From positions 64,001-85,712 of IMG/VR virus record IMGVR_UViG_3300046002_005803: 21,712 bases of DNA; one strand, written 5' to 3'. The notes under the pieces are model-generated. The model was not told where the DNA came from, made no database searches, and saw only the letters and a program-made list of their open reading frames with translations. Positions 1-21,712 of the stretch are shown piece by piece. This DNA comes from a virus. Its lineage: Duplodnaviria > Heunggongvirae > Uroviricota > Caudoviricetes. The stretch's first letter is position 1. Every line of letters starts with the position of its first letter. The translations under genes and the position numbers were made by a program.

Positions 1-1855
1 CTTTGAAGTATTCTTTCTTTTCAGCATCGGTCATCAGGCGAATTTTTTCTTTGACACGAATTACTGATGCTGGCATAGCACCTTCTGCTATATTTTTATC
101 TTGTAACCGTTTTTCTGCACGATTCAATCCAACACTTCTCATTGAAAATTTATGACCTGCTTTATTTGCAGATTTTGGGTCATTGTCTCTTATACCTTTA
201 CCAATAGTGGTAAATTGTTTATCTTGATCTTTCTCCGCTTTGTCATAGTAAGAAGTAACAGTGTCTCTATTCAATTCATCTAACTGGCCTTCTGACACAC
301 CTTGCTCCGGAGGTATAAAGTCTTCCAAATCCATACTAGAAAATCCTATAAAATCGTTTTGACTTCCGTGTGCCGCATTTTGTTTAATTTCTTGTACATA
401 CCGATCGGCACCTTCTGACAGATCACCGGCATCAAGTCCATCAATTGGATACATTACATATTGTTTATCTCCACGATGAAACGACACTGCATAGGAGTTA
501 CTGTCGGCCACGGCATAAATTTCAATAATGTATTTTCCGTCGTCGCTTTCAAAGTCTTCCTGAAAGAAAAATCTATCTCCCTGACCGTCTTTACGCTCAG
601 GTGGTGCTAACTCGTTCAATCCTTTCGAGCCTTTCGCCACACCTTGCTCATTAAATCTTGTATCATGTTTCATTGCAAGTGCATCATTTGTCCGCGGATC
701 GTCAATGAACTTTAATTCGTAATCAGGATGCTTCATTATCTGTTGATTGATATCATATGCTTTAGTGTGATGCTGCTGAGCCTTTTCTTTGTTACCTCTC
801 TTTAGATATGTTCTTGACAAGTAAGTGTGATGTTGATATTTTGATTTCAAATCATCTAATGATTCATTAAAGCCTTCCGCCACACCTTGCTCTGTATGAC
901 TTAAAATATTATTTTTAGGAACACGATATTTTGCCACAGTCTTTTCGGTGTTTCTTGGGCTTGGATCAACTGATTTAACAATAAGATGCCCGTCTTTCCA
1001 ACCAACTATGGTGCCTTCAATTTCAGGATAATGATTGCTGTGATACCAAGTAATCTTATCACCGGGATCGTAACCTTCCGCCACATCTTTCTCTGGTTCT
1101 GGTTTCTTTCTGGGACTATCTAACCAAGGATACTTGGAGCCTTCTGACACACCTTTCTCTGGTTCTGTTGGTTTGGGGTTGGGGTTCTTTCTGGGATTAT
1201 CTAACCAAGGATACTTGGAGCCTTCCTCCACATCTTTTGGTGTTACTCTATCGATACCTTTTTCTCTCCGTGAAATCATGCGTTGAGCAATGTCTTTATA
1301 TTCACCTTTTTTAGCATCTGGGGTAAGTCCTTTAACTTGTGCTTTTGCTTTTTCTAAATAACTTGCTTTAGTAGCATCACTAACCTCCGCGACACCTTGC
1401 ATCTCTTGGCTGCTGATTAGATAATCCATAACACTAACCATCATGCTTTTTGCTGCGCCAATCTTCTCTGATACCCACTCTGGGAATTCAGATTGAACAG
1501 ATAATCTCTCGTCTAAATCACTGGCAGCACGGGCGATAGTGTGTAAACTGTTCTTTAATGTGTGGCCTTCATGTTCACCTTGATCTAAATCATGTTTAAC
1601 AAATCCGGTTCTTTTTAATCTGCCTTGTCCAGGAACAACAATTAAGTCTTGTTCTGAAAGATCATCTTCAGTGACTTTGCTTTCTACAATGCTATTAGCG
1701 TAAGGACCTTTCTTTTTAGATTTGCCCTTTATTAATTGTTGTACTGGTTTTAGTCCACGAACATTAGTATTTTCGCGGGTTTGAGTCATCATAGGCTGTG
1801 CTACGGTGGCAACCGATCCTGCTGTTGTATTTTCTACTATTTGATTAAATCTCAT
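1..1855 (-). CDS. Modular, probably head-internal (capsid cargo) polyprotein, >618 aa, runs off the left window edge; absent from the ORF track
   Basis: Hand translation from ATG at 1855 (MRFNQIVENTTAGSVATVAQPMM...) is open to position 1 (...MTDAEKKEYFK). It lies 23 nt below a TAAATA box. It is built of short domains separated by V-x-E-G linkers (MQGVAEV, KDVEEG, KGVSEG, KDVAEG, EQGVAEG, EQGVAKG, EQGVSEG, KNIAEG). The ORF is secure; the function is inferred. Confidence 0.85.
   Translation of the reverse strand, partial: MRFNQIVENTTAGSVATVAQPMMTQTRENTNVRGLKPVQQLIKGKSKKKGPYANSIVESKVTEDDLSEQDLIVVPGQGRLKRTGFVKHDLDQGEHEGHTLKNSLHTIARAASDLDERLSVQSEFPEWVSEKIGAAKSMMVSVMDYLISSQEMQGVAEVSDATKASYLEKAKAQVKGLTPDAKKGEYKDIAQRMISRREKGIDRVTPKDVEEGSKYPWLDNPRKNPNPKPTEPEKGVSEGSKYPWLDSPRKKPEPEKDVAEGYDPGDKITWYHSNHYPEIEGTIVGWKDGHLIVKSVDPSPRNTEKTVAKYRVPKNNILSHTEQGVAEGFNESLDDLKSKYQHHTYLSRTYLKRGNKEKAQQHHTKAYDINQQIMKHPDYELKFIDDPRTNDALAMKHDTRFNEQGVAKGSKGLNELAPPERKDGQGDRFFFQEDFESDDGKYIIEIYAVADSNSYAVSFHRGDKQYVMYPIDGLDAGDLSEGADRYVQEIKQNAAHGSQNDFIGFSSMDLEDFIPPEQGVSEGQLDELNRDTVTSYYDKAEKDQDKQFTTIGKGIRDNDPKSANKAGHKFSMRSVGLNRAEKRLQDKNIAEGAMPASVIRVKEKIRLMTDAEKKEYFK
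287..1402 (-). repeat. Dispersed in-frame 18-21 nt linker repeat, consensus GAGCAAGGTGTG(G/T)C(G/A)GAAGGC (EQGV[A/S]EG)
   Basis: Near-identical 21-mers at 872-892, 629-649 and 287-307. Partial copies at 1139-1156, 1073-1090, 1220-1237 and 1382-1402. All are in the same reading frame. Confidence 0.9.
1079..1225 (-). repeat. Imperfect tandem duplication (81 nt + 66 nt) encoding EGSKYPWLD[N/S]PRK...EPEK[G/D]V[S/A]
   Basis: 41-nt copies at 1104-1144 and 1185-1225 differ at one base. 14-nt copies at 1088-1101 and 1154-1167 are identical. Confidence 0.95.
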
Positions 1856-1878
1856 GCTGGTTTCCCAAAGTTATAGAG

Positions 1879-1886
1879 TATTTATC
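1879..1886 (-). promoter_or_regulatory. T4-like late promoter (GATAAATA)
   Basis: TAAATA at 1879-1884 is intergenic, 23 nt above the ATG at 1855. It is part of a 17-bp sequence repeated exactly at 8404-8420. Confidence 0.75.
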
Positions 1887-1907
1887 AAAATACCATAATA
1901 TGGAAAC

Positions 1908-3233
1908 TTAAGAGATTTTTCCGTTTGTAGGGGCAGTTTTTGGTACACCGCTTCTTTTTATTTTACCTAACCCTAGTCTCGTAGAGTTGTCCTGAATGCT
2001 ATACGGATTCACATCCACGGTTAGTGCGGTCTTAAATCGTGGATCATTTTTTTCTGACTCGGAAGGAATGTAACCACTTGCTTCACTTATTCCACCACGA
2101 TATTGATTGTCTTTACGCCCACCGTATGGATTTATTGCTGAAGTCTTTTCACTGGCAAATTGCATAGTGTAATTTTCACCGACATTATATGTAGGATCAA
2201 CTTTCTGTCTAGGCATACCTTTAGGTTGTTTTGGATCAACTGGATCAATATCTGTTGTTGTTAATCCAGTCTTTTTTAGTGCATCAATATACTTATGTTC
2301 TTCATCTTCACTTCCAAACGCCAGTATGGTACTAGGTGGTCCTTTACCAAAATCATGCTTTCCTAATCCTTTAAGATTGCTAATATGTTGACCTAACTTA
2401 TACCAATCATATACATCACTAACATCTACTTTAACAGTACCTGCGGGCATCGTTGGTTTAAACTCTGGTCCAGGAGGAGGACCATTTGGATCATAATCTT
2501 CGTCTGTGACATTACGATACATAGTTTCAAACGATAACTTCTCACTATGTAACTTGTTTCTTAAATCATACAACTTTGTAATATATCCCTGGCTACGCAA
2601 CATCTTAAATGCTAAATTCTCAGGTGAAAATTCACCCCCTTTATCTAACCCTGCTTGTCTATATCTTTTGATTGTATCTAATATATGTTTTACTCTGCTG
2701 TACTTTCTTGATTTGAGGGCAATCTCCATTACAGCTAATAACTTTTCATACTTACTTTTAGTGGCAGTTTGGTCAAAATCACTTCTACGCTTAGTGGGTA
2801 TTCTTATCCACTGGTCATTAATTATACTATATTCACCTAAACTTACTACAGGTTCTCTACTGTCTTGTACATACAATTCTACTGGAATTTTATGAATTGT
2901 TATATCATGGGAATCATTGTAAATTGTTTTCTTTGCATTGAATAACTCTTTATATACTTCATCTATAGGCAAATTGCCCATGTCTACTAATATATGCAAA
3001 TCTAAATCACTGTGCTTTGTGTAACTAAATGCAGCATTACTGCCTGATATGGTGATGTCTTTTACATCTAAATCATGTACCCCTAATTCCGATAAAAAGT
3101 CTTGTGCTATCTTTATAAGTTGTTCTCTAACTTCTGACCGTAGTTTAGTACCGTTCCATAACTTTGGATTAAGTTTGTCGTGGAATGTAACTGCATCACT
3201 TAGTTTAAAACTGTTTAATTCTTTTAGGTTCAT
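1908..3233 (-). CDS. Pol-beta-superfamily nucleotidyltransferase with C-terminal accessory modules
   Basis: ISGSN...SDLDLHI matches the hG[GS]x(n)DhD signature (GS 3039-3044, DLD 3000-3008). A third acidic strand (VELYVQD) and a helical region follow. The last ~200 aa are unrelated short segments separated by NVTDE, NVGE and GISE. Confidence 0.75.
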   Translation of the reverse strand: MNLKELNSFKLSDAVTFHDKLNPKLWNGTKLRSEVREQLIKIAQDFLSELGVHDLDVKDITISGSNAAFSYTKHSDLDLHILVDMGNLPIDEVYKELFNAKKTIYNDSHDITIHKIPVELYVQDSREPVVSLGEYSIINDQWIRIPTKRRSDFDQTATKSKYEKLLAVMEIALKSRKYSRVKHILDTIKRYRQAGLDKGGEFSPENLAFKMLRSQGYITKLYDLRNKLHSEKLSFETMYRNVTDEDYDPNGPPPGPEFKPTMPAGTVKVDVSDVYDWYKLGQHISNLKGLGKHDFGKGPPSTILAFGSEDEEHKYIDALKKTGLTTTDIDPVDPKQPKGMPRQKVDPTYNVGENYTMQFASEKTSAINPYGGRKDNQYRGGISEASGYIPSESEKNDPRFKTALTVDVNPYSIQDNSTRLGLGKIKRSGVPKTAPTNGKIS

Positions 3234-3237
3234 TAGT

Positions 3238-3245
3238 TATTTATC
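3238..3245 (-). promoter_or_regulatory. T4-like late promoter (GATAAATA)
   Basis: Abuts the terminator T-tract and lies 4 nt above the ATG at 3233. Confidence 0.7.
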
Positions 3246-3269
3246 AAAAAAAAGCCCCTTTCGGGGCCT
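3246..3269 (-). terminator. Intrinsic terminator GCCCC-GAAA-GGGGC followed by T8
   Basis: Hairpin at 3254-3267 with a GNRA loop and 8 T at 3246-3253 (minus strand), just after the glycosyltransferase stop at 3272. Confidence 0.9.
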
Positions 3270-3271
3270 TC

Positions 3272-4201
3272 TTATGCTGCTTTAATTGATTTGACTTCGT
3301 TGCCGTCTTTGTCAACTAGTTTCAATCCCAGACTTTGTTGTCTTTCCATGAACATTGGTCCAACTGTGTTAATTAGATGTTCTTGATTTTCCTGACAGAA
3401 CACATAACTACCTGAATGACGCAATAGAACACGCTTATCCACCCAAATCTTACCACCGATATCCCGCCAGTTTTCACAGAAAGTCCAATCTTCGCTATAG
3501 TAACGATTCTGACGCACCGCAGTGTCAAAATATGTTTTCAAGTGTTGATCATACTTTGGATCTAATCCAATGTCATTCTTGTATTGCTTGACTGCTGGAT
3601 GAGATTTCAATTTCTCAAATACATGTTTCTTCATTAGTAAGAAGCCAGTGCCTGCTTTAGATACTTCTTGTAATCCGTCTGTTCCTTCTTCAGCACCGTC
3701 AAATCCGTTAACTACCCACTTGATAGGCATAGTCTTCATGGGATACAATCCACCGATAACATCTACATCCCGATTTAACAATACCAACAAATGCCATGGT
3801 TCCCAACCAATGTCAGCATCAACAAAGAATAAGTGTGTTGCGTCAGGCATGTCTAAGAACTTAGCAGTTAGTGTATTACGGGCACGACTGATTAGTGATT
3901 CGTTGACCATTGTTTCCAATGTCCAGTCAATGTTTAATTGACGGGCGGTGTTAGCCCACTTGATGAAACTCATAAATGTTGATTCAGTCAACATACCTCC
4001 ATAGCAAGGCATAGAAATATGCACTTTGGTTGTACGCAGAAAGTCTACATTAACTTGTACTTGTCCTGCAGCGGGTGCTTCAGCAGGAGCATCTGCTGCT
4101 TTTTCTGCTTGTTCCTCTGCTGCTTGTGCAGCAATTTCTTGTACCATTTCTACTGGTACTGATTTTTCTTCTGCTGCTTCTTTGGGTTTTCTTGTTGCCA
4201 T
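3272..4201 (-). CDS. GT-A fold (GT2-like) glycosyltransferase with an Ala/Glu-rich N-terminal extension
   Basis: VHISMPCY first strand, SLISRARN, HLFFVDAD (DxD motif), VIGGLYP, GTGFLLM and SEDW acceptor-site motif. SD GAGGA upstream. Confidence 0.85.
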   Translation of the reverse strand: MATRKPKEAAEEKSVPVEMVQEIAAQAAEEQAEKAADAPAEAPAAGQVQVNVDFLRTTKVHISMPCYGGMLTESTFMSFIKWANTARQLNIDWTLETMVNESLISRARNTLTAKFLDMPDATHLFFVDADIGWEPWHLLVLLNRDVDVIGGLYPMKTMPIKWVVNGFDGAEEGTDGLQEVSKAGTGFLLMKKHVFEKLKSHPAVKQYKNDIGLDPKYDQHLKTYFDTAVRQNRYYSEDWTFCENWRDIGGKIWVDKRVLLRHSGSYVFCQENQEHLINTVGPMFMERQQSLGLKLVDKDGNEVKSIKAA

Positions 4202-4257: not shown

Positions 4258-7200
4258 TTATTTTTCGTCTAGATAATCAAATTTAGGAGCTTGCGGACGA
4301 CCATAATCTTGTTCACGTTTTTTCATCCGTTCTTGATCTCTTGCTGCTCTTAGTTTGGCAATAGGTGCACCTTTGATTAAGGCGTTTGCCATATGAGCCA
4401 TCACCTCTTCTTCTTCTATAGGTTCAATGGTAGCACCCATCTCATCTAGATGTTGTTTTGCTTCTAACAATTGATTGTATATTTTAACTTTCTGAATAGG
4501 AGTAGCATACTCAAGCATTGGCTTAATCTTTTTAATATACTCTTTAATAGCTTGCGGTTGATTGTTTGAATATTTTGCAGTAGTATCCATTAAATGCTTT
4601 ATCCACGCTACTCCTAGCTTTTGTGAATCAAATGCCTGCATCCAAACGTTTAATTTGTCTTGTTCACTTGCATTAGGATTTTTTAAGATATCACGCAATT
4701 GAGTAAAACTTATTCCAGTTCCACCTTTTTCAGGATCACGCTCTGTACCAATTGTTTGAAATTCAACTTGATTTTGTGTCCCACCATACTTGGCTAATGC
4801 AACTGGATCTTTCATGCGCTTTTCTAAACTATTTAACCACGACTCTGTACTGTCTTTTCTATCCGCACCTACTACAACTATAATTTTATTGTATTTACTA
4901 TTAGCCGGAAGAACAAGTTCTTTTTCAATCTTCTTCATTGCAGTTCCGCCTGCATCCCAAACTTGAATGTTGTTTGCATATTGTGGATACAACTTCTGCA
5001 ATGTTTTAACTTTGTCTGCTGGTGGAATAGGATCATCTGGACCAACAACTGGACTTACATATATGAATGGTACTCCACCCACTTGTTTTGCTATAGCAAT
5101 TGTTTCATCAATTAACTGTTCATGTCCTTTATGACCCACAAATGAACCATAAGTGATTACTGCGGTGGTTGTGCGATTTCCACCTTCAGTTGGCTTCTTG
5201 TTCATGGCTTGTTTGTCAGCCATCTTTTGCTGCATGTCAGGACTTGTTACTTTAGCAAGAGTACCGCTTGGCATATTAATAACAAGACCTTCAATCATAT
5301 CACCAAGTTGATCTTTCCCTGGTATAGGACTGTTAATAATCACCTTGCTTAATGCTTGTCTTGCAGCAGATAATATTGCTTTTGCTTTTTGTTTGTCAGG
5401 TGAATCCCCTCTCTGAGACACCGCATTCAATAATGCTGCTGAGTTCTTTACGATAGGATTAACAATTTTACTAACATCAATGCCTTTATGGCTCAATGTA
5501 TTATTAATCATTTTGATATCAGGGGTGCTATCTTTAATTAATGCTTCTTTAATCTCATCAGCATCAGGACTTTGTTCACCCGTACTGTATTGCTTAACAG
5601 TAATTGGAACAAGAGTCATTACCTTACCTAATTTCTTAGGATCATATGGGATGTTAACAAACTTAAAACCACCACTATCTTGTTGTGCCATTGGATTGAA
5701 TAACATTTCAGCATTGACAATTGTATCAGGTGGAATATCTTTCATAAATTTAGCATTAACAATTATACTTAATACTTTATCATAATTTTGTGTTCTTGTC
5801 AGTTGCTCATCAGATTGACCTTGACTTCTTCCATACTTCTCAAAATCACCAATGTTGGCTTTAGTCATGGGAGTTTCAACTCTACTAGTCATAAAGAATG
5901 GTTCACCATTTTGTGTTCTGCCAAATCTTATGCCAGCACCATCTACTTTCAAGTTAATAGGAACATTTGCAAAATTGCCACCATCTTGTGCTATCTCTTT
6001 ACAAAAATTGATAAAATCTGCATCCTTCATCTCAGTAGATGAACCAGGATTGTATATATGTTGAATACCCTTACGCTTATAGCTAGGAACTGCTTCGGCT
6101 AATGTATTCTTTGCCATTGATTTTACAACATCGGCATCAGCTCCTGCTTTTTCTTCAGCACCAGCTGATGTATATTTGAATGATTTACGGTATGCAGCAA
6201 GTAGTTGGTCTAATTCAGCGGACTTAGATAGTTTTAATGTGTCTAGTAAGGTGTTGATCGCTACCATTTTCTCTGCAATATCTTTATCAGGGTTATTTTT
6301 GTACATACCCTGTGCACCTGGCCCTATTGTCTTTTGCAAGAACCCCTGCATTACTTGTTCTTTTTCTTCAGGACTCATCAAAGAATTCATTACTTGTAAT
6401 AAGCCAGTGAATGACCAGAATTGTTTTTGCAATGCTTTTGCTTGTTTAGGATTTAATCGTTGGTCTAAAATCGTTGAAAAGATTTGTCCAATGTCTTGAT
6501 TATATCCTGATGTAGGTGCTTCCCGCATTACAGGTAAACCTTTACTAACTAACGGTTTTCCATTATCATCTAATACCGGTTCATACTTTGCTCGTAGTCC
6601 GCCACCTTCTTTGCTAGATACTGCAAAAGAATACATGTTATCTGTGGTAGGAACATCTTGTTCTTGTCTTAATTTACCTCTACCAACCAATTTTCGTAAT
6701 ATGAAGTCTTTGCGAGTTAGTGCTGTAAATGCTTGTATCAACCATTTATGGAATACACCTTTAACTCCTGCTTGCAAATCCTCCCATGCGCTACTATGAC
6801 TAAATCTAGCCCAATCAGTTGGATTGTCTTTTTCAAATTCTACAAATTCAAAATCAATCTGTACTTTAACAGGTGGGTCTTGCAATTCAAACAATCCAGA
6901 GAATTGTTCATTGCCTCTTTGAAATCCTAAAAATGTCGCAGCACCTATTTGTTTGTTAGTGTATGCTGTCAAGAATTGTTGTAAGTTAGGTTCTTTTGTT
7001 TTGTCAACCATGGTGTCAATATCACCAACAGTTGGTTTCTTTTCTGTAAATACCTCATCAGAGATACCCTTAACATTAAAGAAATGCAATGAACTTCCAC
7101 TTAAGAACTTACCACTTGTTAAGAGTTCATTACTCCATAATCCTTGCTTATACATTTTAAAATAAGCAGAATTAATTGCGTAAAGTAGTTCATTTAATTT

Positions 7201-7323
7201 AGGAACCATGTAACTACGCTTAGTTACCTTTAAATCTAAATGCTGTGCTTCTTTTCCGTTAATAGATAGATTGCCACCTTCGTCTAGGTGTGTACGACCT
7301 TCAAGTAGGGCACTGATTTTCAT
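4258..7323 (-). CDS. Three-domain fusion: Pol-beta-type NTase + ATP-dependent ligase/capping-type adenylation domain + HIGH-class (cytidylyl/NMN adenylyltransferase-like) NTase
   Basis: Domain 1: LSGSS (7093-7098)...GDIDTMVD (7015-7026)...VQIDF. Domain 2: NLKVDGAGIR (KxDG, 5938-5949), NAEML, EGLVI (5278-5292), LAKV. Domain 3: TAVITYG..HKGH (5122-5133), IIVVVGADR, GISFTQLR (4693-4713). Confidence 0.75.
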   Translation of the reverse strand: MKISALLEGRTHLDEGGNLSINGKEAQHLDLKVTKRSYMVPKLNELLYAINSAYFKMYKQGLWSNELLTSGKFLSGSSLHFFNVKGISDEVFTEKKPTVGDIDTMVDKTKEPNLQQFLTAYTNKQIGAATFLGFQRGNEQFSGLFELQDPPVKVQIDFEFVEFEKDNPTDWARFSHSSAWEDLQAGVKGVFHKWLIQAFTALTRKDFILRKLVGRGKLRQEQDVPTTDNMYSFAVSSKEGGGLRAKYEPVLDDNGKPLVSKGLPVMREAPTSGYNQDIGQIFSTILDQRLNPKQAKALQKQFWSFTGLLQVMNSLMSPEEKEQVMQGFLQKTIGPGAQGMYKNNPDKDIAEKMVAINTLLDTLKLSKSAELDQLLAAYRKSFKYTSAGAEEKAGADADVVKSMAKNTLAEAVPSYKRKGIQHIYNPGSSTEMKDADFINFCKEIAQDGGNFANVPINLKVDGAGIRFGRTQNGEPFFMTSRVETPMTKANIGDFEKYGRSQGQSDEQLTRTQNYDKVLSIIVNAKFMKDIPPDTIVNAEMLFNPMAQQDSGGFKFVNIPYDPKKLGKVMTLVPITVKQYSTGEQSPDADEIKEALIKDSTPDIKMINNTLSHKGIDVSKIVNPIVKNSAALLNAVSQRGDSPDKQKAKAILSAARQALSKVIINSPIPGKDQLGDMIEGLVINMPSGTLAKVTSPDMQQKMADKQAMNKKPTEGGNRTTTAVITYGSFVGHKGHEQLIDETIAIAKQVGGVPFIYVSPVVGPDDPIPPADKVKTLQKLYPQYANNIQVWDAGGTAMKKIEKELVLPANSKYNKIIVVVGADRKDSTESWLNSLEKRMKDPVALAKYGGTQNQVEFQTIGTERDPEKGGTGISFTQLRDILKNPNASEQDKLNVWMQAFDSQKLGVAWIKHLMDTTAKYSNNQPQAIKEYIKKIKPMLEYATPIQKVKIYNQLLEAKQHLDEMGATIEPIEEEEVMAHMANALIKGAPIAKLRAARDQERMKKREQDYGRPQAPKFDYLDEK

Positions 7324-9156: not shown

Positions 9157-11418
9157 TTAGTTAACAATAATTAATCCATTGTCATCAACCATTGCTGTTA
9201 GTTTGTGTGTTACTACAAAATCAATTGCTCCGGCTGACATTACAACATTGATTGTTGCAGATTTAATGCGCTCAAACAAGACTTTCTTACTTAGAGGTAC
9301 CCGAATCAATTCATCAATCTTACGACTTAATGGTCGTGCGCCCATTTTCTTATCATATCCTTGCTCTGCTAAGTATTCTACCACTGGCTCACTTAGATTC
9401 ATTACAATTTCATGTTTGTCTAACAAACTCTTTTTCAAGTCATCGGTAAACTTGATAACAATCTTCTTAATAGCAAGTGTATCCAACTTGTTAAACTTGC
9501 AAATCAAATCAACACGATTACGGAACTCAGGCTTGAAGAATTCTTTCAATGCTTTGTCATCTTCACCGGTCTTTTCTTGTGTGCCAAATCCAATGTTGTT
9601 GCGTTCGCTATCACTAGAACCCAAGTTACTAGTCATAATGATAATACTGTTTTTACAGTTAACTTGCTTGCCATTACTACCGGTAAGATGCCCTTCATCT
9701 AACATCTGTAGAAAGATATTAAAGATTTCTGGATGTGCTTTTTCAACCTCATCAAATAGCATAATACTATGTGGGTTCTTGCTCAAGTCATTAATCAATC
9801 TACCACCCGACACTTGACTATCACCGAATCCAACATAGCCCGGAGGAGGTCCAATCAAACTTGAAACACTATGCTTCTCTGAATACTCACTCATGTCATA
9901 CTTAAGTAGCGGCATATCCAAGTTCTTGCTAAGTAGTTTGGCAAATTCTGTTTTACCAGTTCCAGTAGGGCCTAAGAATAAGAAACTACCTGTTGGTTTA
10001 CTATCATTACCAATACCAGCAAAGTTAACATAAATTCGTTCAAGTACTTTTTGTACAGTTTCATCTTGACCATATAGTTTGTCCTTGATATTTGATTCTA
10101 AATTATGAATCAAATCAAAGTTGTCACCCTTCATCTTGTCAGCAGGGACTCCGGTGAATCGTTCAACTTGATCAAATACAAGGTCTTTGGTAATGATTGC
10201 CCCTTTGTTCTCTGCTACTCGTTGTTTAGCGCAAGCAGCATCAAGTAAATCAATAGATTTGTCTGGGTTCTTTCGGTCATGAATATACCGATCAGCACTT
10301 TCAACTGCTGCTTTGATTGCCTCATCTGTAATTTCAACATTGTGAAAATCATTAAGTCTAGCACTTAATCCATTCAATATACGAATAGTTGTGTCGTGAT
10401 TAGGTTCATCAACTGACACACGATAGAATCTACGCATCAATGCACGGTCCTTTTCAAAACTTTCGTAGTATTCTTCCCAAGTTGTGCTAGCAATAACTTT
10501 AAGAGTACCTTTAGTAATTGCGGGTTTAATCATGTTACTGAAGTCCACTGAACCAGTAGATGAACCCCCTGAACCCTGCATAGTATGTGCCTCGTCAATG
10601 AAAAGGATAGTCTTTTTCTTTGTGTTTAACGCATCCAGTACTGCTTTGACTTTTTCTTCAAAGTCCCCGCGATATTTACTTCCTGCAAGCAATGAGCCAA
10701 TCTCCAAGCTATATATTTGATGATCATGCAAGAATTCAGGTACTTCTTTGTTGATCATCATCTGTGCTAGACCTTCGGCGATTGCTGTTTTACCAACCCC
10801 AGGGTCACCTACCATCAATACATTACTCTTGAATCGTTTAGCAAGTACATTAATGATATCGTCAAGTTCTTTGCCGCGACCAATCATTGGTTCAAGTTTA
10901 CCTTGTGCCGCTAATTGTGTTAAGTTGATGGTATATTCTTCTAGAATTTCGTCGGCTTGATTCTCGGTGAGATTACCCACTTCGTTGTGCTTATAATTTT
11001 TCTGCCAATGTGCTACAAATTCATTTTTGTTGATTCCGTATTTCAACAAGAAATAATGAGCATGACTATTCCCTTCTGCCGCAATGCTAAGATACAAGTC
11101 AATAGTTGTTACTTGCCTACGACCGGTGAATAACACTTGTGTTACAGAACGATTCATAACTCGTTCTAAACTATTTGTTTTACGAGGTACTACTTCATCC
11201 TCTTTGCTTACAATGGCATGTAAACTGTCTAAGTATGCCTTAATCTCTTGATCCATTGTTTCAATATCTGCACCAAAACTATGCAAGCATTTTTTGAATG
11301 CACTGTGATTTATCAAACCAAGAAGTAAATGTTCTACGGTTACATATTGATGTTTTCTTTCTTTAGCATGATGAATCGCTTGTTCAATAATGCTATCAAT
11401 TTCGGGTGAATGGTTCAT
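9157..11418 (-). CDS. clpA: ClpA-type ATP-dependent Clp protease ATP-binding subunit
   Basis: Clp N-domain (VTVEHLLLGL) and two AAA+ modules (GDPGVGKT/FIDEAH and GPTGTGKT/FDEVEKAH). Pore loops GSKYRG and GYVG, an IGF ClpP-docking loop, and no coiled-coil M-domain. Confidence 0.92.
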   Translation of the reverse strand: MNHSPEIDSIIEQAIHHAKERKHQYVTVEHLLLGLINHSAFKKCLHSFGADIETMDQEIKAYLDSLHAIVSKEDEVVPRKTNSLERVMNRSVTQVLFTGRRQVTTIDLYLSIAAEGNSHAHYFLLKYGINKNEFVAHWQKNYKHNEVGNLTENQADEILEEYTINLTQLAAQGKLEPMIGRGKELDDIINVLAKRFKSNVLMVGDPGVGKTAIAEGLAQMMINKEVPEFLHDHQIYSLEIGSLLAGSKYRGDFEEKVKAVLDALNTKKKTILFIDEAHTMQGSGGSSTGSVDFSNMIKPAITKGTLKVIASTTWEEYYESFEKDRALMRRFYRVSVDEPNHDTTIRILNGLSARLNDFHNVEITDEAIKAAVESADRYIHDRKNPDKSIDLLDAACAKQRVAENKGAIITKDLVFDQVERFTGVPADKMKGDNFDLIHNLESNIKDKLYGQDETVQKVLERIYVNFAGIGNDSKPTGSFLFLGPTGTGKTEFAKLLSKNLDMPLLKYDMSEYSEKHSVSSLIGPPPGYVGFGDSQVSGGRLINDLSKNPHSIMLFDEVEKAHPEIFNIFLQMLDEGHLTGSNGKQVNCKNSIIIMTSNLGSSDSERNNIGFGTQEKTGEDDKALKEFFKPEFRNRVDLICKFNKLDTLAIKKIVIKFTDDLKKSLLDKHEIVMNLSEPVVEYLAEQGYDKKMGARPLSRKIDELIRVPLSKKVLFERIKSATINVVMSAGAIDFVVTHKLTAMVDDNGLIIVN

Positions 11419-12230
11419 GCTTGATTCCTTTGTTGTTTATAAGCCGTAATGCTATTGATAACTTGTTCTCCTATTATATCAGGGATGAATGCTTTTAACA
11501 ATATAATTTGGTCACCGTAGCTAGTAGCATTTAGTATAGGCATGCCTTGTCCCGCTAATTTTAATTGAATATAGGGTTGAGTTTTAGGTTTAATTGTTAC
11601 ATCCAGCGTTTTTCCTGATAGAGTAACAAATTCAAAACTTGTGCCAATAATCAAATCTAACACGGAAATTGGATGGTTGCAAATTAAATCATTACCTTGT
11701 CTATCATATTTGAGATGGGGTTCAACCCGAAAATCTACTATTAAACTAGCACCATCTATGACTTTATCTATACGCATTTGATTATCATTTTGAATCCCTT
11801 TAGGAATCTGAATGGTTATGGCATGTACATTCGTGGGTGTTTGTAGTTTTAATATTTGTTCACCGCCGTTATATGCTTGTTCTAATGATATATTTATTGT
11901 TGTTCTAAATAATTGTTGTTGAGGTTGTTGTTGTCTACGTTGTTGACTGAATATGTCAAAAGGATTATTTTGACCAAACATTTGACCAAATATATGTTCA
12001 AACCCTGGGGGTATTCCACCTTGCTGCGGAAATCCTTGTGGCATGGGATTATCATATTGCTGGCGTTTATTTGCATCACTTAATGTTTCATACGCAGCTT
12101 GTGTTTCCTGAAATTTGACTTTATCCCCTCCCTTATCGGGATGATGCTGACTAGCCAATCTTCGCCAGGCCCCTTTGATATCCTCTTGTGAGGCGGTTTT
12201 AGTAACACCTAAAATTTCATAATAATCCAT
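11415..12230 (-). CDS. dnaJ: DnaJ-class co-chaperone (class B/CbpA-like, no zinc finger)
   Basis: MDYYEILGV...HHPDKGGD J-domain, a G/F/Q-rich linker and a C-terminal substrate-binding region (RQGNDL, LAGQGMP, GDQII). No CxxCxGxG repeats. ATGA overlap with clpA. Confidence 0.92.
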   Translation of the reverse strand: MDYYEILGVTKTASQEDIKGAWRRLASQHHPDKGGDKVKFQETQAAYETLSDANKRQQYDNPMPQGFPQQGGIPPGFEHIFGQMFGQNNPFDIFSQQRRQQQPQQQLFRTTINISLEQAYNGGEQILKLQTPTNVHAITIQIPKGIQNDNQMRIDKVIDGASLIVDFRVEPHLKYDRQGNDLICNHPISVLDLIIGTSFEFVTLSGKTLDVTIKPKTQPYIQLKLAGQGMPILNATSYGDQIILLKAFIPDIIGEQVINSITAYKQQRNQA

Positions 12231-14240: not shown

Positions 14241-15029
14241 TTGAGCAAACGGAAAACTAGTGCTTTACGCACAACGCAAGAAGATTCACGCTATTTAACT
14301 AGCAAAAAACAAACAAATCAAACTTTTTATATGAAAGAATCCAAAACAATAGATTTCTCACAAGCACAAAGAACTACTAGGGTTAATAAAAGACCCGTGC
14401 AGTTGATCCCCAAATCGCTAAATCAAGAAAATTATATTATCGCATTACTAGATGAAAACACAGATATTGTTGTCGTCTCTGGCCCTGCCGGTACTGGAAA
14501 AACATATCTTGCAATCTTGGCAGCAGTTAAAGCACTTCGTGCCGGCGAATGTAAACGAATCGTTCTTACCAGGCCTGCGGTAGCCGTGGAGGATGAGGAT
14601 CATGGATTCTTGCCCGGTGATTTGAATGAGAAACTGGCCCCTTGGGTAAGACCAATGGTGGATATTCTGCATGAGTATTACACGGTGAAGGAGCTTGCGG
14701 AGATGATAGCTGAACAAGTCATTGAATTCTCTCCGTTGGGCTTTATGCGTGGCCGCACATTCAAGGACTCTATCATCATTCTGGATGAGGGCCAAAACAG
14801 TCGTCCAGGCCAGTTAAAAATGTTAATGACCCGGATAGGGTCAGGAAGTAAAATTATCCTGACGGGTGATACCGAGCAGACAGACCAGCGAAAAGAAAAC
14901 AATGGTCTTCTCGATTTAGTCACAAGACTTGGTCAGCACCCTGTCTCCGGTATTGTGTCATGTAAATTTGAAGTAAAAGATGTACAGCGACACCGGATAA
15001 TTGAGCAAGTACTCAAACTGTATAGTTAA
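14241..15029 (+). CDS. phoH: PhoH-family ATPase
   Basis: GPAGTGKT Walker A, RIVLTRP, GFLPG, FMRGRTF, LDEGQN, LMTRIG and GDxxQxD motifs. TTG start with SD AAGGAG. Confidence 0.95.
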   Translation: MSKRKTSALRTTQEDSRYLTSKKQTNQTFYMKESKTIDFSQAQRTTRVNKRPVQLIPKSLNQENYIIALLDENTDIVVVSGPAGTGKTYLAILAAVKALRAGECKRIVLTRPAVAVEDEDHGFLPGDLNEKLAPWVRPMVDILHEYYTVKELAEMIAEQVIEFSPLGFMRGRTFKDSIIILDEGQNSRPGQLKMLMTRIGSGSKIILTGDTEQTDQRKENNGLLDLVTRLGQHPVSGIVSCKFEVKDVQRHRIIEQVLKLYS

Positions 15030-16245: not shown

Positions 16246-16526
16246 TTTCTAAGCATCTCAAGTGTTATGATGTGGGCGATACTTTGACCCAAGTCTTGTT
16301 CACTGGGAATGATATGTAATGTGGAATCGCGTTCTTCGGTTCTGTCATTATACGAAACATATTCCATTACATATCCTCCGTTAGCAGAGTAGATAGTAAA
16401 GTTCATTCCATTTCGGTCAAATCTACGCCTTCTAACTGAGCCGACCGTCGATTCTTCCACTCTAGAAGCATTTTCCCAATCTTCACTGGCCCAGTTGTGA
16501 ATCTTTTTCTTAAACCATTTTATCAT
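16242..16526 (-). CDS. Hypothetical protein (94 aa)
   Basis: Overlap-coupled at both ends (TAATG with groES, ATGA with the clamp loader). Confidence 0.7.
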   Translation of the reverse strand: MIKWFKKKIHNWASEDWENASRVEESTVGSVRRRRFDRNGMNFTIYSANGGYVMEYVSYNDRTEERDSTLHIIPSEQDLGQSIAHIITLEMLRK

Positions 16527-16915
16527 TAGTACACCATTTCGCTTAATGTTGAATCCGATACTTCTTCATCTGACATCATTAGTATATCATCAGCGTCAAC
16601 TCTACGCAATGTTTTCTTACCCGTTTCATCTTCTATCTCAATTCCACGAGTCCAGCGTCCATGACTGACACAAACCCATTTACCTTCAACAATGTCAGTA
16701 TCTTTGTTTTCTGAACCCACAGCATATATCTTTCCCCAGCGAGGCCTGATACCTGCACTTTTCATATCATCATTGGGCAATAGAATACCGCCATGTGTAA
16801 TGCGTTGGTCAAAACTCATATCACATACGATAATATGTGCGCCAATTGGGTTGAACTGGCTTTTATTGAATTTATGTGGAGCAAATGCTAATTTTTTTGG
16901 TTCGGTGTGTGTCAT
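16526..16915 (-). CDS. groES: GroES/Cpn10-like co-chaperonin (T4 gp31-like); start revised to ATG 16915 (129 aa)
   Basis: FNPIGAHIIV, a mobile loop THGGILLP, GKIYAVG and RVDADDILM follow the Cpn10 pattern. ATG 16915 lies 1 nt after the upstream stop, whereas the longer track start overlaps the upstream gene. Confidence 0.75.
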   Translation of the reverse strand: MTHTEPKKLAFAPHKFNKSQFNPIGAHIIVCDMSFDQRITHGGILLPNDDMKSAGIRPRWGKIYAVGSENKDTDIVEGKWVCVSHGRWTRGIEIEDETGKKTLRRVDADDILMMSDEEVSDSTLSEMVY

Positions 16916-16916
16916 G

Positions 16917-17288
16917 TTATTTCTTCTTTGTTGCTTTCTTGATTTCTTCTTCTTTGATTTTTTCAATCGCCAAATCATCTTCAATTGATTCATCTAACTC
17001 AAATTCTTCTGGGTGGAGTTCAGCAACGGCTATTTTTGCTGGTGTGGGAACATCCGGTTGTATTCTACTTTGTGGCTTGCTTGCGTTTGCTGAACGATTT
17101 CCCACTGTTTTAGCATAAGCATTGTTTACTTTAGCAGTTGCGGGTTGAATTATTCTACCCATTGAATCAATGGTGTCACCTCGTGCGTTAAGATTTTTGA
17201 CATTCCCCACGGCTCTGACTTTTTCATTTTTTGCTACAATAGCTGACATGTCAACGGTTTTACCCATTGCGGATCTGTATGTGGCCAT
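16917..17288 (-). CDS. Conserved hypothetical protein (123 aa)
   Basis: Strong SD AAGGAG and a TAAATA box 22 nt upstream. Motif YRSAMGKTVDM...RAVGN...NARGD; function not recognised. Confidence 0.75.
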   Translation of the reverse strand: MATYRSAMGKTVDMSAIVAKNEKVRAVGNVKNLNARGDTIDSMGRIIQPATAKVNNAYAKTVGNRSANASKPQSRIQPDVPTPAKIAVAELHPEEFELDESIEDDLAIEKIKEEEIKKATKKK

Positions 17289-20055: not shown

Positions 20056-20062
20056 TATTTAG
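20056..20062 (-). promoter_or_regulatory. Candidate late promoter (CTAAATA)
   Basis: Overlaps the stop of the upstream gene and lies 19 nt above the ATG at 20036. Confidence 0.5.
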
Positions 20063-21712
20063 TATTGAGTTTCATCTGGTAAAATAGTTGCACGAGGGAA
20101 CAATACAAAGAAATCTTGACTATTGATTGGGTTTGGTACTGGAGTAGCACTAGGTAAACTAGACCATGCAGGTGGATTAAAATCATTTTCCCAATTATAA
20201 GTAGTACTCTTATCTACTGTAAATCTATCTATATTGAAATTAATCTGATTAAGAGTATATGGCCAGTTAGTTTCTATATTCGTTTTAATAGTTTCAGCTT
20301 GGCCTGGTTTTGTATAGCATATTACCCATGCTTGAGTATAGCCCAAAGTACTACCATTTGTTTGTTGACTAGTCATCCATACTGGCAATAGTGTGCTGTT
20401 TAATACTTGTCCCAGGATATCAGCTACTCTATTACGCATGTTAAATAAACTGTTAGGGTATAGCGTTCTAGCATATCCGGAAGTCAAACTAGTAAAGTAT
20501 TGTTGATTTAACAATTCAACATAGCTAGTGAATATATCGGTTACACTTGTGTACCAAGGTCCCAAATGTAAATCAATTGGAGTTGGCCAATATATACTAC
20601 TAGGAACACTAACCCCTTGGGGATTTATCAAATTATCAATTACTTCACTGTATACTACTTCATAAATTATATTATTATTGTTATCTCTTGCAATAGCAGT
20701 TTTTAGCTCACCTAAAGTGATATTTCTCCAGTAATGATTTTGTGTGACTGATGCTATATATTCTTGTAGACCACTTGCATATATACCATATGCATGGTCG
20801 TATATGACATTGGTTGCTTTTCCAAAATTAACATCATCTGATCTGTATAATAATTCAGTAGGTATTAGTGCTTCACTGTCTAACAATGTTCGTAGTATAT
20901 TTCTATCGTTAATGCTAGGGGCCGCTTGAATATATAATATATCAGTAGGTTGCCCATATTCTTGATATACATTTACGGTAAATGTTTTGCTAGATTCTAC
21001 AATAGCAAAGTTTGACGAGTATGCTTGAATTGTAAATGTAAAAGCAGTTTGTTCACCAACATTTAAAAAAGTATTTGTTGGTTGACTAGCTACAATACCT
21101 GTTATTTCACCGCTGGGTAATAATGTTAAATTCGGAGGTAAACTACCTGAAGTTAATCTATACTCTAATGGGGTGTCCGAAACTGCAAGGACTTTTAATA
21201 TGCTAAGAGTGTCGTTATATATTGTACCTAAATCTTGTAGTGTGACCCAAGATATTGTACCAGTGATATCCAAACTTAGATTGAATGCAAAATTAAACAC
21301 CGGAGACACTATTCCAGTATTACCTGCTCTTACTACTTGTGCAGTAAAACTATAGTTATTAATACCCGGTGATGACAAAATAGGAGTTCCTGTTATCCAA
21401 CCTGTGGTAGAATCATGTGCTATTCCCTGCGGCAATCCAGAAACATAATAATTAATATCGTTGCCATCAAACTCATATCCAATTAATTTGAAAGCAAAGT
21501 AGTTATCACTTAAAAATGTACCTAATTGAGCATTCGTTGAAGTTGCTATCGGTGGCAATAAATAATAACCATAATACGGATCACTATCATTTACTGTAAT
21601 TGTCAATGGTCTAGTATTTAATAAAGTGGGCTGTCTTGTGTTAGGTGGGTTTCCAGGACCACCTTGACTTACAGGGGTGTTTTGATTTAAAACTGTAATT
21701 GAATAAGAATTC
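20059..21712 (-). CDS. Large virion structural protein with putative Ig-like domains (baseplate/tail-associated), N-terminally truncated by the window edge
   Basis: The frame stays open from 21606 to the window end (NSYSITVLNQNTPVSQGGPGNPP...), so the TTG start in the track is not the real start. GLPQGIAHDSTTGWITGTP and GSLPPNLTLLPSGEITG are putative-Ig-domain-like. Confidence 0.75.
   Translation of the reverse strand, partial: NSYSITVLNQNTPVSQGGPGNPPNTRQPTLLNTRPLTITVNDSDPYYGYYLLPPIATSTNAQLGTFLSDNYFAFKLIGYEFDGNDINYYVSGLPQGIAHDSTTGWITGTPILSSPGINNYSFTAQVVRAGNTGIVSPVFNFAFNLSLDITGTISWVTLQDLGTIYNDTLSILKVLAVSDTPLEYRLTSGSLPPNLTLLPSGEITGIVASQPTNTFLNVGEQTAFTFTIQAYSSNFAIVESSKTFTVNVYQEYGQPTDILYIQAAPSINDRNILRTLLDSEALIPTELLYRSDDVNFGKATNVIYDHAYGIYASGLQEYIASVTQNHYWRNITLGELKTAIARDNNNNIIYEVVYSEVIDNLINPQGVSVPSSIYWPTPIDLHLGPWYTSVTDIFTSYVELLNQQYFTSLTSGYARTLYPNSLFNMRNRVADILGQVLNSTLLPVWMTSQQTNGSTLGYTQAWVICYTKPGQAETIKTNIETNWPYTLNQINFNIDRFTVDKSTTYNWENDFNPPAWSSLPSATPVPNPINSQDFFVLFPRATILPDETQY

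Follow-up and report, generated by a model that had tools for sequence, protein, structure and literature searches.

What is the gene at the start of a 21,712-nucleotide (nt) stretch of a tailed-phage genome (Caudoviricetes; IMG/VR record IMGVR_UViG_3300046002_005803, positions 64,001 to 85,712; hereafter the window, meaning the whole stretch that was analysed), and why is its product a string of small segments separated by one recurring linker? A preliminary description had read the open reading frame (ORF) as the gene of a precursor that is packaged in the prohead, cut by the head protease and injected as many small effectors. Here we report a computational analysis of this ORF and its relatives. 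Its product is a polyprotein with a conserved N-terminal region followed by about ten small autonomous modules, many of them basic, and related phages very probably swap, duplicate and reorder these modules at the joint between them, an 18-base element that lies in frame. The role of the joint as the DNA breakpoint of module exchange is the best-supported part of the story and was absent from the preliminary description. By analogy with the internal proteins (IPs) IPI-III, Alt and scaffold protein gp22 of phage T4 and with the multiply cut head proteins of phage phiKZ, we also lean towards the polyprotein being packaged in the prohead and cleaved at the joints by a gp21-type protease.

Results

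The polyprotein ORF lies on the minus strand at window positions 2-1855, with its ATG at 1855-1853, and is still open where it reaches the low window edge. In the parent contig the complete gene (G000:C1:63486-65855, minus strand; labelled P0002) has 789 codons and a predicted full-length product of 89 kDa; residues 1-618 fall in the window and the other 171 codons at contig positions 63486-64000. A joint-separated ORF in 1-1855 had been described before and is confirmed here, with the additions that it is read from the minus strand and runs off the window edge; its segments, then put at 20-110 residues, actually measure 22-157. The short plus-strand ORFs at 3-155 and 1134-1286 were rejected as genes, being antisense to a conserved gene.

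Twelve joint-like sites occur in the full protein and are named by the residue at position P1, which is followed here by a slash. The first six are QGVAE/V 157 (joint 1, residues 152-157; window 1385-1402), KDVEE/G 211 (joint 2, residues 207-212; 1220-1237), KGVSE/G 238 (joint 3, residues 234-239; 1139-1156), KDVAE/G 260 (joint 4, residues 256-261; 1073-1090, with the core GTGGCGGAAGG), QGVAE/G 327 (joint 5, residues 323-328; 872-889, the canonical CAAGGTGTGGCGGAAGGC) and QGVAK/G 408 (joint 6, residues 404-409; 629-646). The other six are DLSE/G 481 (410-427), QGVSE/G 522 (joint 8, residues 518-523; 287-304), KNIAE/G 591 (joint 9, residues 587-592; 80-97), QDVAE/G 651, KDVAE/G 676 and KKVSE/G 744; all sites in the window are on the minus strand. 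The pattern [VIL][ASE]EG is found 10 times in the polyprotein; in 20,000 shuffled versions of it the mean count was 0.14 and the highest 3, and an origin by chance or low complexity was rejected on these grounds. Its density (12.7 per 1000 residues) is about 60-fold that in the other ORFs of the contig (0.21), only two of which have a comparable linker-like site. A 2A-like or intein-like self-processing element was also considered and rejected, as such motifs are not present.

Three of these sites deviate. Joint 6 differs from the canonical DNA by a single G-to-A change (GAA to AAA), which turns Glu into Lys and leaves 17 of the 18 bases intact; if cutting requires Glu, the modules on either side of it (F and G+H, see below) would remain fused in this phage. 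The DLSEG site (residues 478-482) lies within one predicted fold, consisting of a beta sheet (429-471) and a helix (476-495), and residues 403-531 occur as one block in relatives, so that it is probably not a module boundary. Joint 1 is degenerate and lies within a helix predicted by AlphaFold.

The canonical joint, CAAGGTGTGGCGGAAGGC, encodes QGVAE/G in frame and uses rare codons. In a survey of 53 peptide-defined [QKE]GV[AS]EG sites from 34 related contigs, GTG was used in 50 joints (background, 15% of Val codons), GCG in 48 (7% of Ala codons), GGC in 39 (17% of the codons for that amino acid) and GGT in 51 (52%), together with CAA in 48 and GAA in 50 (79% each). A search for a 14-base core with up to one mismatch gave 57 sites whose flanks are unique and unrelated, every one in frame and on the coding strand; none of the 57 was intergenic or out of frame. 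As a control, four-fold sites at identical residues in the conserved helices of the N-domain are 69-85% identical among near relatives and 0-58% among distant ones; the 18 unique GVAE sites of distant contigs have GGT in 17, GTG in 14 and GCG in 16 cases. A repeat finder run within the ORF recovered the joints as two direct-repeat families. The 18-base joint is thus conserved as DNA beyond neutral expectation.

Metagenomic relatives of the polyprotein number 503 in a word-indexed search and 1,172 at E<=0.001 in an exhaustive HMMER search, and QGVAEG recurs throughout them. Residues 1-156 are common to nearly all (40-92% identity), and the remainder matches piecewise: residues 256-335, 403-528, 514-594, 586-653 and 716-789 each match different proteins at different positions. 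The order of modules is A-B-C-D-E-F-GH-I-J-K-L-M in this ORF, A...I-J-B in relative P0003 and F-K-I in P0092. The separate mini-domains proposed earlier are supported as autonomous units, which recur in different orders and in different proteins. At the DNA level, a 344-kb relative (L065) is collinear with the locus at 88% identity from the upstream gene to residue 154 and matches thereafter in blocks only, with residues 153-213 corresponding to subject residues 396-456 and residues 517-652 to 266-401. The shared parts are 86-95% identical, module B has been relocated, and the breakpoints (residues 153/154, 213, 517 and 652) each fall on a joint, among them joints 1 and 8. The ends of high-scoring segment pairs at the protein level, a cruder measure than the DNA breakpoint map, lie within 8 residues of joints in 51% of cases, compared with 26% expected. 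Modules that can be recognised in relatives include DUF6321, cytidylyltransferase-like, AntA, HicA, LysM, DUF5710, DUF3008, SH3-type, helix-turn-helix (HTH) and DUF2188 modules, none of which occurs in the polyprotein ORF. A tblastn search with the ORF and a megablast search with 12 kb of DNA against 50,697 phage records gave no match, a literature search found no paper describing the joint or the cassette architecture, and a search for the peptide GVAEG returned unrelated papers only.

The peptide rule at the joint was examined by counting single-position variants of the 115 unique QGVAEG joints in 248 family proteins. Glu at P1 has the fewest (6), followed by P4 (9), P3 (14, with Met, Leu or Ile in 13), P2 (30), P5 (46) and P1' (60). 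This spectrum is a hydrophobic-X-Glu pattern, unlike the uniform constraint that DNA identity alone would impose, and it agrees with the head-protease-like character ascribed to the linkers in the preliminary description, as P1 is least variable, P3 hydrophobic and P2 free. The rule is also kept where other codons are used, as in joint 9: AATATAGCAGAAGGT encodes NIAEG and AAAGTTAGTGAAGGT encodes KVSEG. For comparison, the T4 protease gp21 cleaves after Glu in L/I-X-E (PMC9026906), and the proteases of phiKZ and SPN3US cleave after S/A-X-E and A-X-E (PMC9026906, PMC5694885).

The structure models agree with a beads-on-a-string architecture. The full-length AlphaFold model has a predicted template modelling score of 0.31, with confident small folds separated by disordered joint stretches (predicted local distance difference test, pLDDT, below 50 at 9 of the 12 joints), the reverse of a single continuous fold that buries its linkers, which the preliminary description had named as refuting its reading. 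Module A (residues 1-157; 1385-1855, minus strand, as are all modules below) is the conserved N-terminal region; in a model built from a 94-sequence alignment, residues 1-89 are predicted to be disordered though strongly conserved, and residues 90-156 form a confident helical hairpin. The disordered part conserves I-x-E58, V-x-E63 and L-x-E68, the last Glu being invariant, and with these several hydrophobic-X-Glu sites it resembles, by analogy, the multi-site propeptides of giant phages (PMC9026906). Module B (158-211; 1223-1384) is helical and basic and stands near the C-terminus in P0003 of L065. Modules C (212-238) and D (239-260), together at 1076-1222, are two SKYPWLD..PEK cassettes of 22-27 residues, and a third copy is module K (652-676) outside the window; the repeat finder recovered all three as a 79-nt direct repeat family (D1), and all three are predicted to be disordered. 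Module E (261-327; 875-1075) is a small SH3-like beta barrel that many other proteins carry at different positions, module F (328-408; 632-874) a helical hairpin with a pLDDT of about 96, and module G+H (409-522; 290-631) a single acidic fold of four strands and a helix. Module I (GQLDEL..., 523-591; 83-289) is helical and basic and recurs in P0003, P0092 and others. Module J (592-651), of which residues 592-618 lie in the window (2-82), is helical, and modules K, L and M lie beyond the window, L/M being helical as well. The predicted products measure 2.6-12.7 kDa, and nine of the 11 cargo pieces after the N-terminal region have a pI above 8.

Family and fold searches gave little. PHROGs and Pfam returned no family match for any module of the ORF, a SAD_SRA hit being below threshold and disregarded. 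Foldseek with the full model found nothing in the PDB at E<=0.001 and gave weak hints only, namely a Pur-alpha-like module G+H and a chromo/SH3-like module E; its BFVD rows (TM below 0.1) were other long disordered proteins and meaningless. The ESM Atlas likened module E to small SH3-type barrels, some of which are free-standing viral proteins, and was uninformative for module G+H, with every feature score below 0.8. Rfam matched nothing in window positions 1-3300.

The window is the final 21.7 kb of an 85.7-kb contig (G000) with a CheckV completeness of about 25%. Its DNA polymerase shares 42-48% identity with the enzymes of Phosso, Atu_ph07, Vibrio phage 2.275.O, XaC1 and RaK2/K64-1, phages with genomes of 346-490 kb; given this identity, the source is taken to be an uncultured jumbo myovirus of the T4-related group. 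The contigs bearing the closest polyprotein relatives are 230-344 kb long. Four related contigs (G001-G004) have T4-like head genes arranged as in T4, with matches to Peptidase_S77 (PF03420, E about 1e-29) and to Gp23 (PF07068, E about 1e-99); they are closely related to one another, and their head genes therefore count as one observation. In G001 the order is portal, a 75-residue protein, an acidic 273-residue protein, protease, a 366-residue coiled-coil protein and major capsid protein, which is the T4 order 20-67-68-21-22-23, with the coiled-coil protein in the place of the scaffold, a family that has over 7,800 relatives in metagenomes. The protease (G001:233207-233842) aligns with T4 gp21 (PDB 5JBL, E 7e-16) from Gly24 onwards, directly after a VSE/G of its own. 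LLEG, LLEG and LLAE/S occur in the first 44 residues of the capsid protein, and LVAEG is invariant in a shallow alignment of the scaffold protein. A prohead-protease context had been assumed earlier and is now placed in the lineage, which has T4-type head genes including a gp21-type (S77) protease.

The N-terminal residues 1-8 of the polyprotein, MRFNQIVE (1832-1855, minus strand), form a candidate tag that ends in I-V-E and loosely resembles the capsid-targeting sequence (CTS) of T4, MKTYQEFIAE (PMC8442874, PMC9026906). In T4 a protein needs no more than these first 10 residues to be loaded into the head; positions 4 and 7 are important for targeting, positions 8 and 10 for processing (PMC8442874, PMC9026906), and the CTS loads both the IPs, which are diverse apart from it, and foreign proteins into the head (PMC9026906, PMC3012670). 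CTS-like starts occur on five of the seven joint-bearing ORFs and on 13 of the 413 others of G000 and G001 (Fisher p 1.6e-6, a value that is indicative only, since the tag pattern was defined after the data were seen); those in G001 include MRAKEFITE, MRASEFLTE, MRATEFITE, MRFTEFISE and MRTNEFLAE. Outside the window, G000 has such starts (MRATEFIAE, MRAIEFINE, MRFNEIISE, MNFKELLE and MKPSDFLTE) on mutually unrelated ORFs at 44448-45344(+), 60514-61890(-), 41606-42796(+), 42793-44448(+) and 62333-63484(-). One tagged ORF of 458 residues has a C-terminal endolysin/chitinase-like domain (phrog_181), and this candidate wall-degrading enzyme may also be head-loaded. A Dps/ferritin-like gene for a DNA-binding protein (phrog_3636; PF00210 in relatives) is present in G000 (61890-62330, minus strand) and in contigs L064 and L065, and comes after tagged cargo genes in several contigs.

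Upstream of the polyprotein gene, the motif GATAAATA (1879-1886, minus strand) starts 31 nt before the ATG and is like a late promoter. It occurs within 40 nt upstream of ORFs in 21 of its 35 copies in G001 (p 1e-26) and in 6 of 12 in G000, and is enriched 10-35 nt upstream of start codons at many sites in both contigs. Seven of the 10 G001 genes tested behind it encode baseplate, fibre or virion proteins. The consensus of T4 late promoters is TATAAATA, which is not present in exact form in the window; GATAAATA, one base off it, is probably the late promoter of this clade.

The gene order of a 441-residue nucleotidyltransferase-type protein, the polyprotein and the MKPSDFLTE gene is conserved. 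The first of these (window 1908-3233, minus strand) has a GS...DxD N-terminal half (phrog_36119) and a long tail that looks unstructured; its relatives have further modules, joined by QGVAE, added to this tail, and the joint is degenerate here (NVGENYTMQFASEK). The window also encodes a 1021-residue protein (4258-7323, minus strand) with a cytidylyltransferase-like region at about residues 700-887 (phrog_3041, phrog_395); modules of this type are present in two polyprotein relatives. A phage chaperone set comprises a 753-residue ClpA/B-like protein with two AAA+ domains (phrog_4871; 9157-11418, minus strand), a full DnaJ with J domain and C-terminal domain (11415-12230, minus strand) and a GroES/gp31-like co-chaperonin (16526-16993, minus strand). 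A PhoH-like gene (14241-15029) is the sole clearly coding plus-strand gene of the window, and a large ORF open at the window end (20059-21711, minus strand) carries an Ig-like He_PIG domain (PF05345, E 4e-6) and may encode a virion surface protein.

Discussion

Taken as a whole, the explanation that we find somewhat the most convincing is that the polyprotein ORF is expressed late by an uncultured jumbo myovirus (genome about 340 kb) of the T4-related Rak2/Atu_ph07 group and that its product serves as a head-packaged precursor. The tag and the conserved N-terminal region would guide this precursor to the core of the prohead, a prohead protease of the gp21 type would cut after each joint Glu and free small internal head proteins or peptides, and the freed pieces would stay with the DNA and enter the host. 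Besides providing DNA homology for module exchange, the joint would thus act as a protease site in the peptide. The released modules may serve in DNA packing, host takeover or counter-defence, the last of these roles being speculative.

Several observations weigh against this explanation. The joint has Val at P3 while the T4 rule has Leu or Ile, and part of its peptide conservation could be a by-product of its conservation as DNA. Joint 6 has Lys where Glu is expected, two joint-like sites lie in predicted helices and one inside a fold, and the G001 ortholog has few canonical joints. MRFNQIVE matches the T4 CTS less well than the MRATEFIAE-type tags of neighbouring ORFs. The head genes are seen in relatives only; the contig of the window itself lacks gp21-, gp22- and gp23-type genes, being only about a quarter of the genome. 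No module matches a known effector or anti-defence family in PHROG, Pfam or fold searches.

A rather unlikely alternative is that the protein stays uncut and works as one long multi-module protein, whether injected in the manner of polyvalent proteins or attached to the virion as a string of binding modules, with the joint acting only as a recombination or spacer element and its Glu rule reflecting linker solubility or DNA constraint rather than a protease. Conservation at the DNA level and breakpoints on the joints would explain its persistence without cleavage, polyvalent proteins of 2-15 domains are delivered intact or partly processed (PMC5512222), and the joint without Glu and the two joints in helices fit as well. 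Against this, the spectrum of variants is skewed as expected for a hydrophobic-X-Glu protease site and not as expected from DNA identity alone, joints with non-canonical codons still keep the peptide, and the cassettes of 22-27 residues are too small for domains; moreover, the joints hardly occur outside ORFs that bear CTS-like tags, and the lineage concerned encodes a protease of the gp21 type. That the product is an unpackaged late protein of the cytoplasm, cut, if at all, by another protease (e.g. of the Clp-like, DnaJ and GroES-like set) and like the CTS by coincidence, we consider improbable. MRFNQIVE is indeed short and only loosely like MKTYQEFIAE, and the window does encode ClpA/B-like AAA+, DnaJ and GroES-like proteins; yet MRATEFIAE, MRAKEFITE and MRFTEFISE have the EFI-x-E of the T4 CTS and stand on many unrelated ORFs, AAA+ unfoldases lack such site specificity, and the promoter motif is common to structural genes. 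Selection of the joint DNA for translation, as a rare-codon or Shine-Dalgarno-like pause during which each bead folds and of which recombination is a side effect, appears very improbable. The joint does contain rare codons (GTG, GCG and GGC) and the sequences AAGGTG and GGAAGG, but any rare codon would serve as a pause, whereas one exact 18-mer is kept and rearrangement breakpoints fall on it.

The polyprotein shares features with several known systems. Like IPI, IPII, IPIII and Alt of T4, it has a short candidate N-terminal tag that ends in hydrophobic-X-Glu, relatives with gp21-, gp22- and gp23-type head genes, and diverse, fast-changing cargo behind a conserved, putatively targeting part, with small and often basic predicted products. 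Unlike the T4 proteins, it would carry many cargos per precursor, with up to 12 internal sites and a conserved region of 150 residues after the tag; its sites are copies of one conserved 18-base DNA element. No homology to IPI, IPII, IPIII or Alt was found in PHROG, Pfam or the tblastn search of the 50,697 phage records. The inner-body and ejection proteins of phiKZ, 201phi2-1 and SPN3US are similar in being head proteins of giant phages that are cut after Glu at several sites, with long propeptides that have redundant sites. They belong to another clade and other families, are not cassette arrays with a repeated DNA joint, and are cut by the proteases gp175 and gp245 at S/A-X-E sites with a small P3 (Ser, Ala or Gly); PHROG gave no hit to their paralogs and fold searches no meaningful match.

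Polyvalent proteins of phages and conjugative elements (Iyer et al. 2017; PMC5512222) likewise combine many unrelated domains in a single polypeptide, which is presumed to accompany the DNA into the recipient cell, and relatives of the polyprotein carry single HicA, cytidylyltransferase-like (CTP_transf_like), AntA, LysM and HTH modules. Polyvalent proteins have recognisable enzymatic domains and often a metallopeptidase of their own, whereas the polyprotein has tiny unassigned modules with a fixed joint; Pfam gave no domain for the ORF, where polyvalent proteins have several of disparate known activity, and no peptidase family that could provide a processing metallopeptidase was hit in the ORF or 94 relatives. 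In the PeSL cassettes of T4-type phages (PMC2839356) and the glycine-rich motifs of gp38 adhesins (PMC3157838), short conserved sequences also flank variable segments and mark exchanges. PeSLs are intergenic units of promoter and terminator, whereas the polyprotein joint lies in frame inside genes (57 of 57 sites with unique flanks are coding); the motifs of gp38 together make up a single structural core, whereas the joint is a protease-site-like linker between independent folds. Polymorphic toxins of the MuF type have a conserved head-associated N-terminus and variable C-terminal cargo with one terminal toxin, in contrast to the string of modules seen here; Pfam was negative for a MuF (SPP1 gp7-like) domain, and the N-terminal model is a disordered stretch with a helical hairpin. 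By analogy, the polyprotein would be functionally like the CTS/IP system and the cut proteins of phiKZ and would evolve like shuffled PeSL and gp38 segments; it is close to polyvalent proteins in concept, while being by sequence a member of none of these groups.

More tentatively, and with somewhat more doubt than assurance, we suggest that giant phages share plug-and-play cargo, in which the 18-base element is both a universal recombination site and a head-protease release site and any module placed behind a capsid-targeting tag becomes a separately released, injected protein. If cleavage in the prohead is true, this would be a natural system of expression, packaging and processing far more elaborate than that of T4, with one gene delivering a changeable set of ten or more small proteins together with the DNA and with recombination at a fixed 18-base site as the means of altering that set. 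It would account for the diversification of early-acting cargo in abundant uncultured giant phages, give a testable context to hundreds of small modules, and provide, in the combination of tag, joint and cassette, a design rule by which phage heads could be filled with foreign proteins. Should the joints not be cleaved, the shuffling of modules among phage genes by way of an in-frame DNA joint would still be an unusual way for proteins to evolve.

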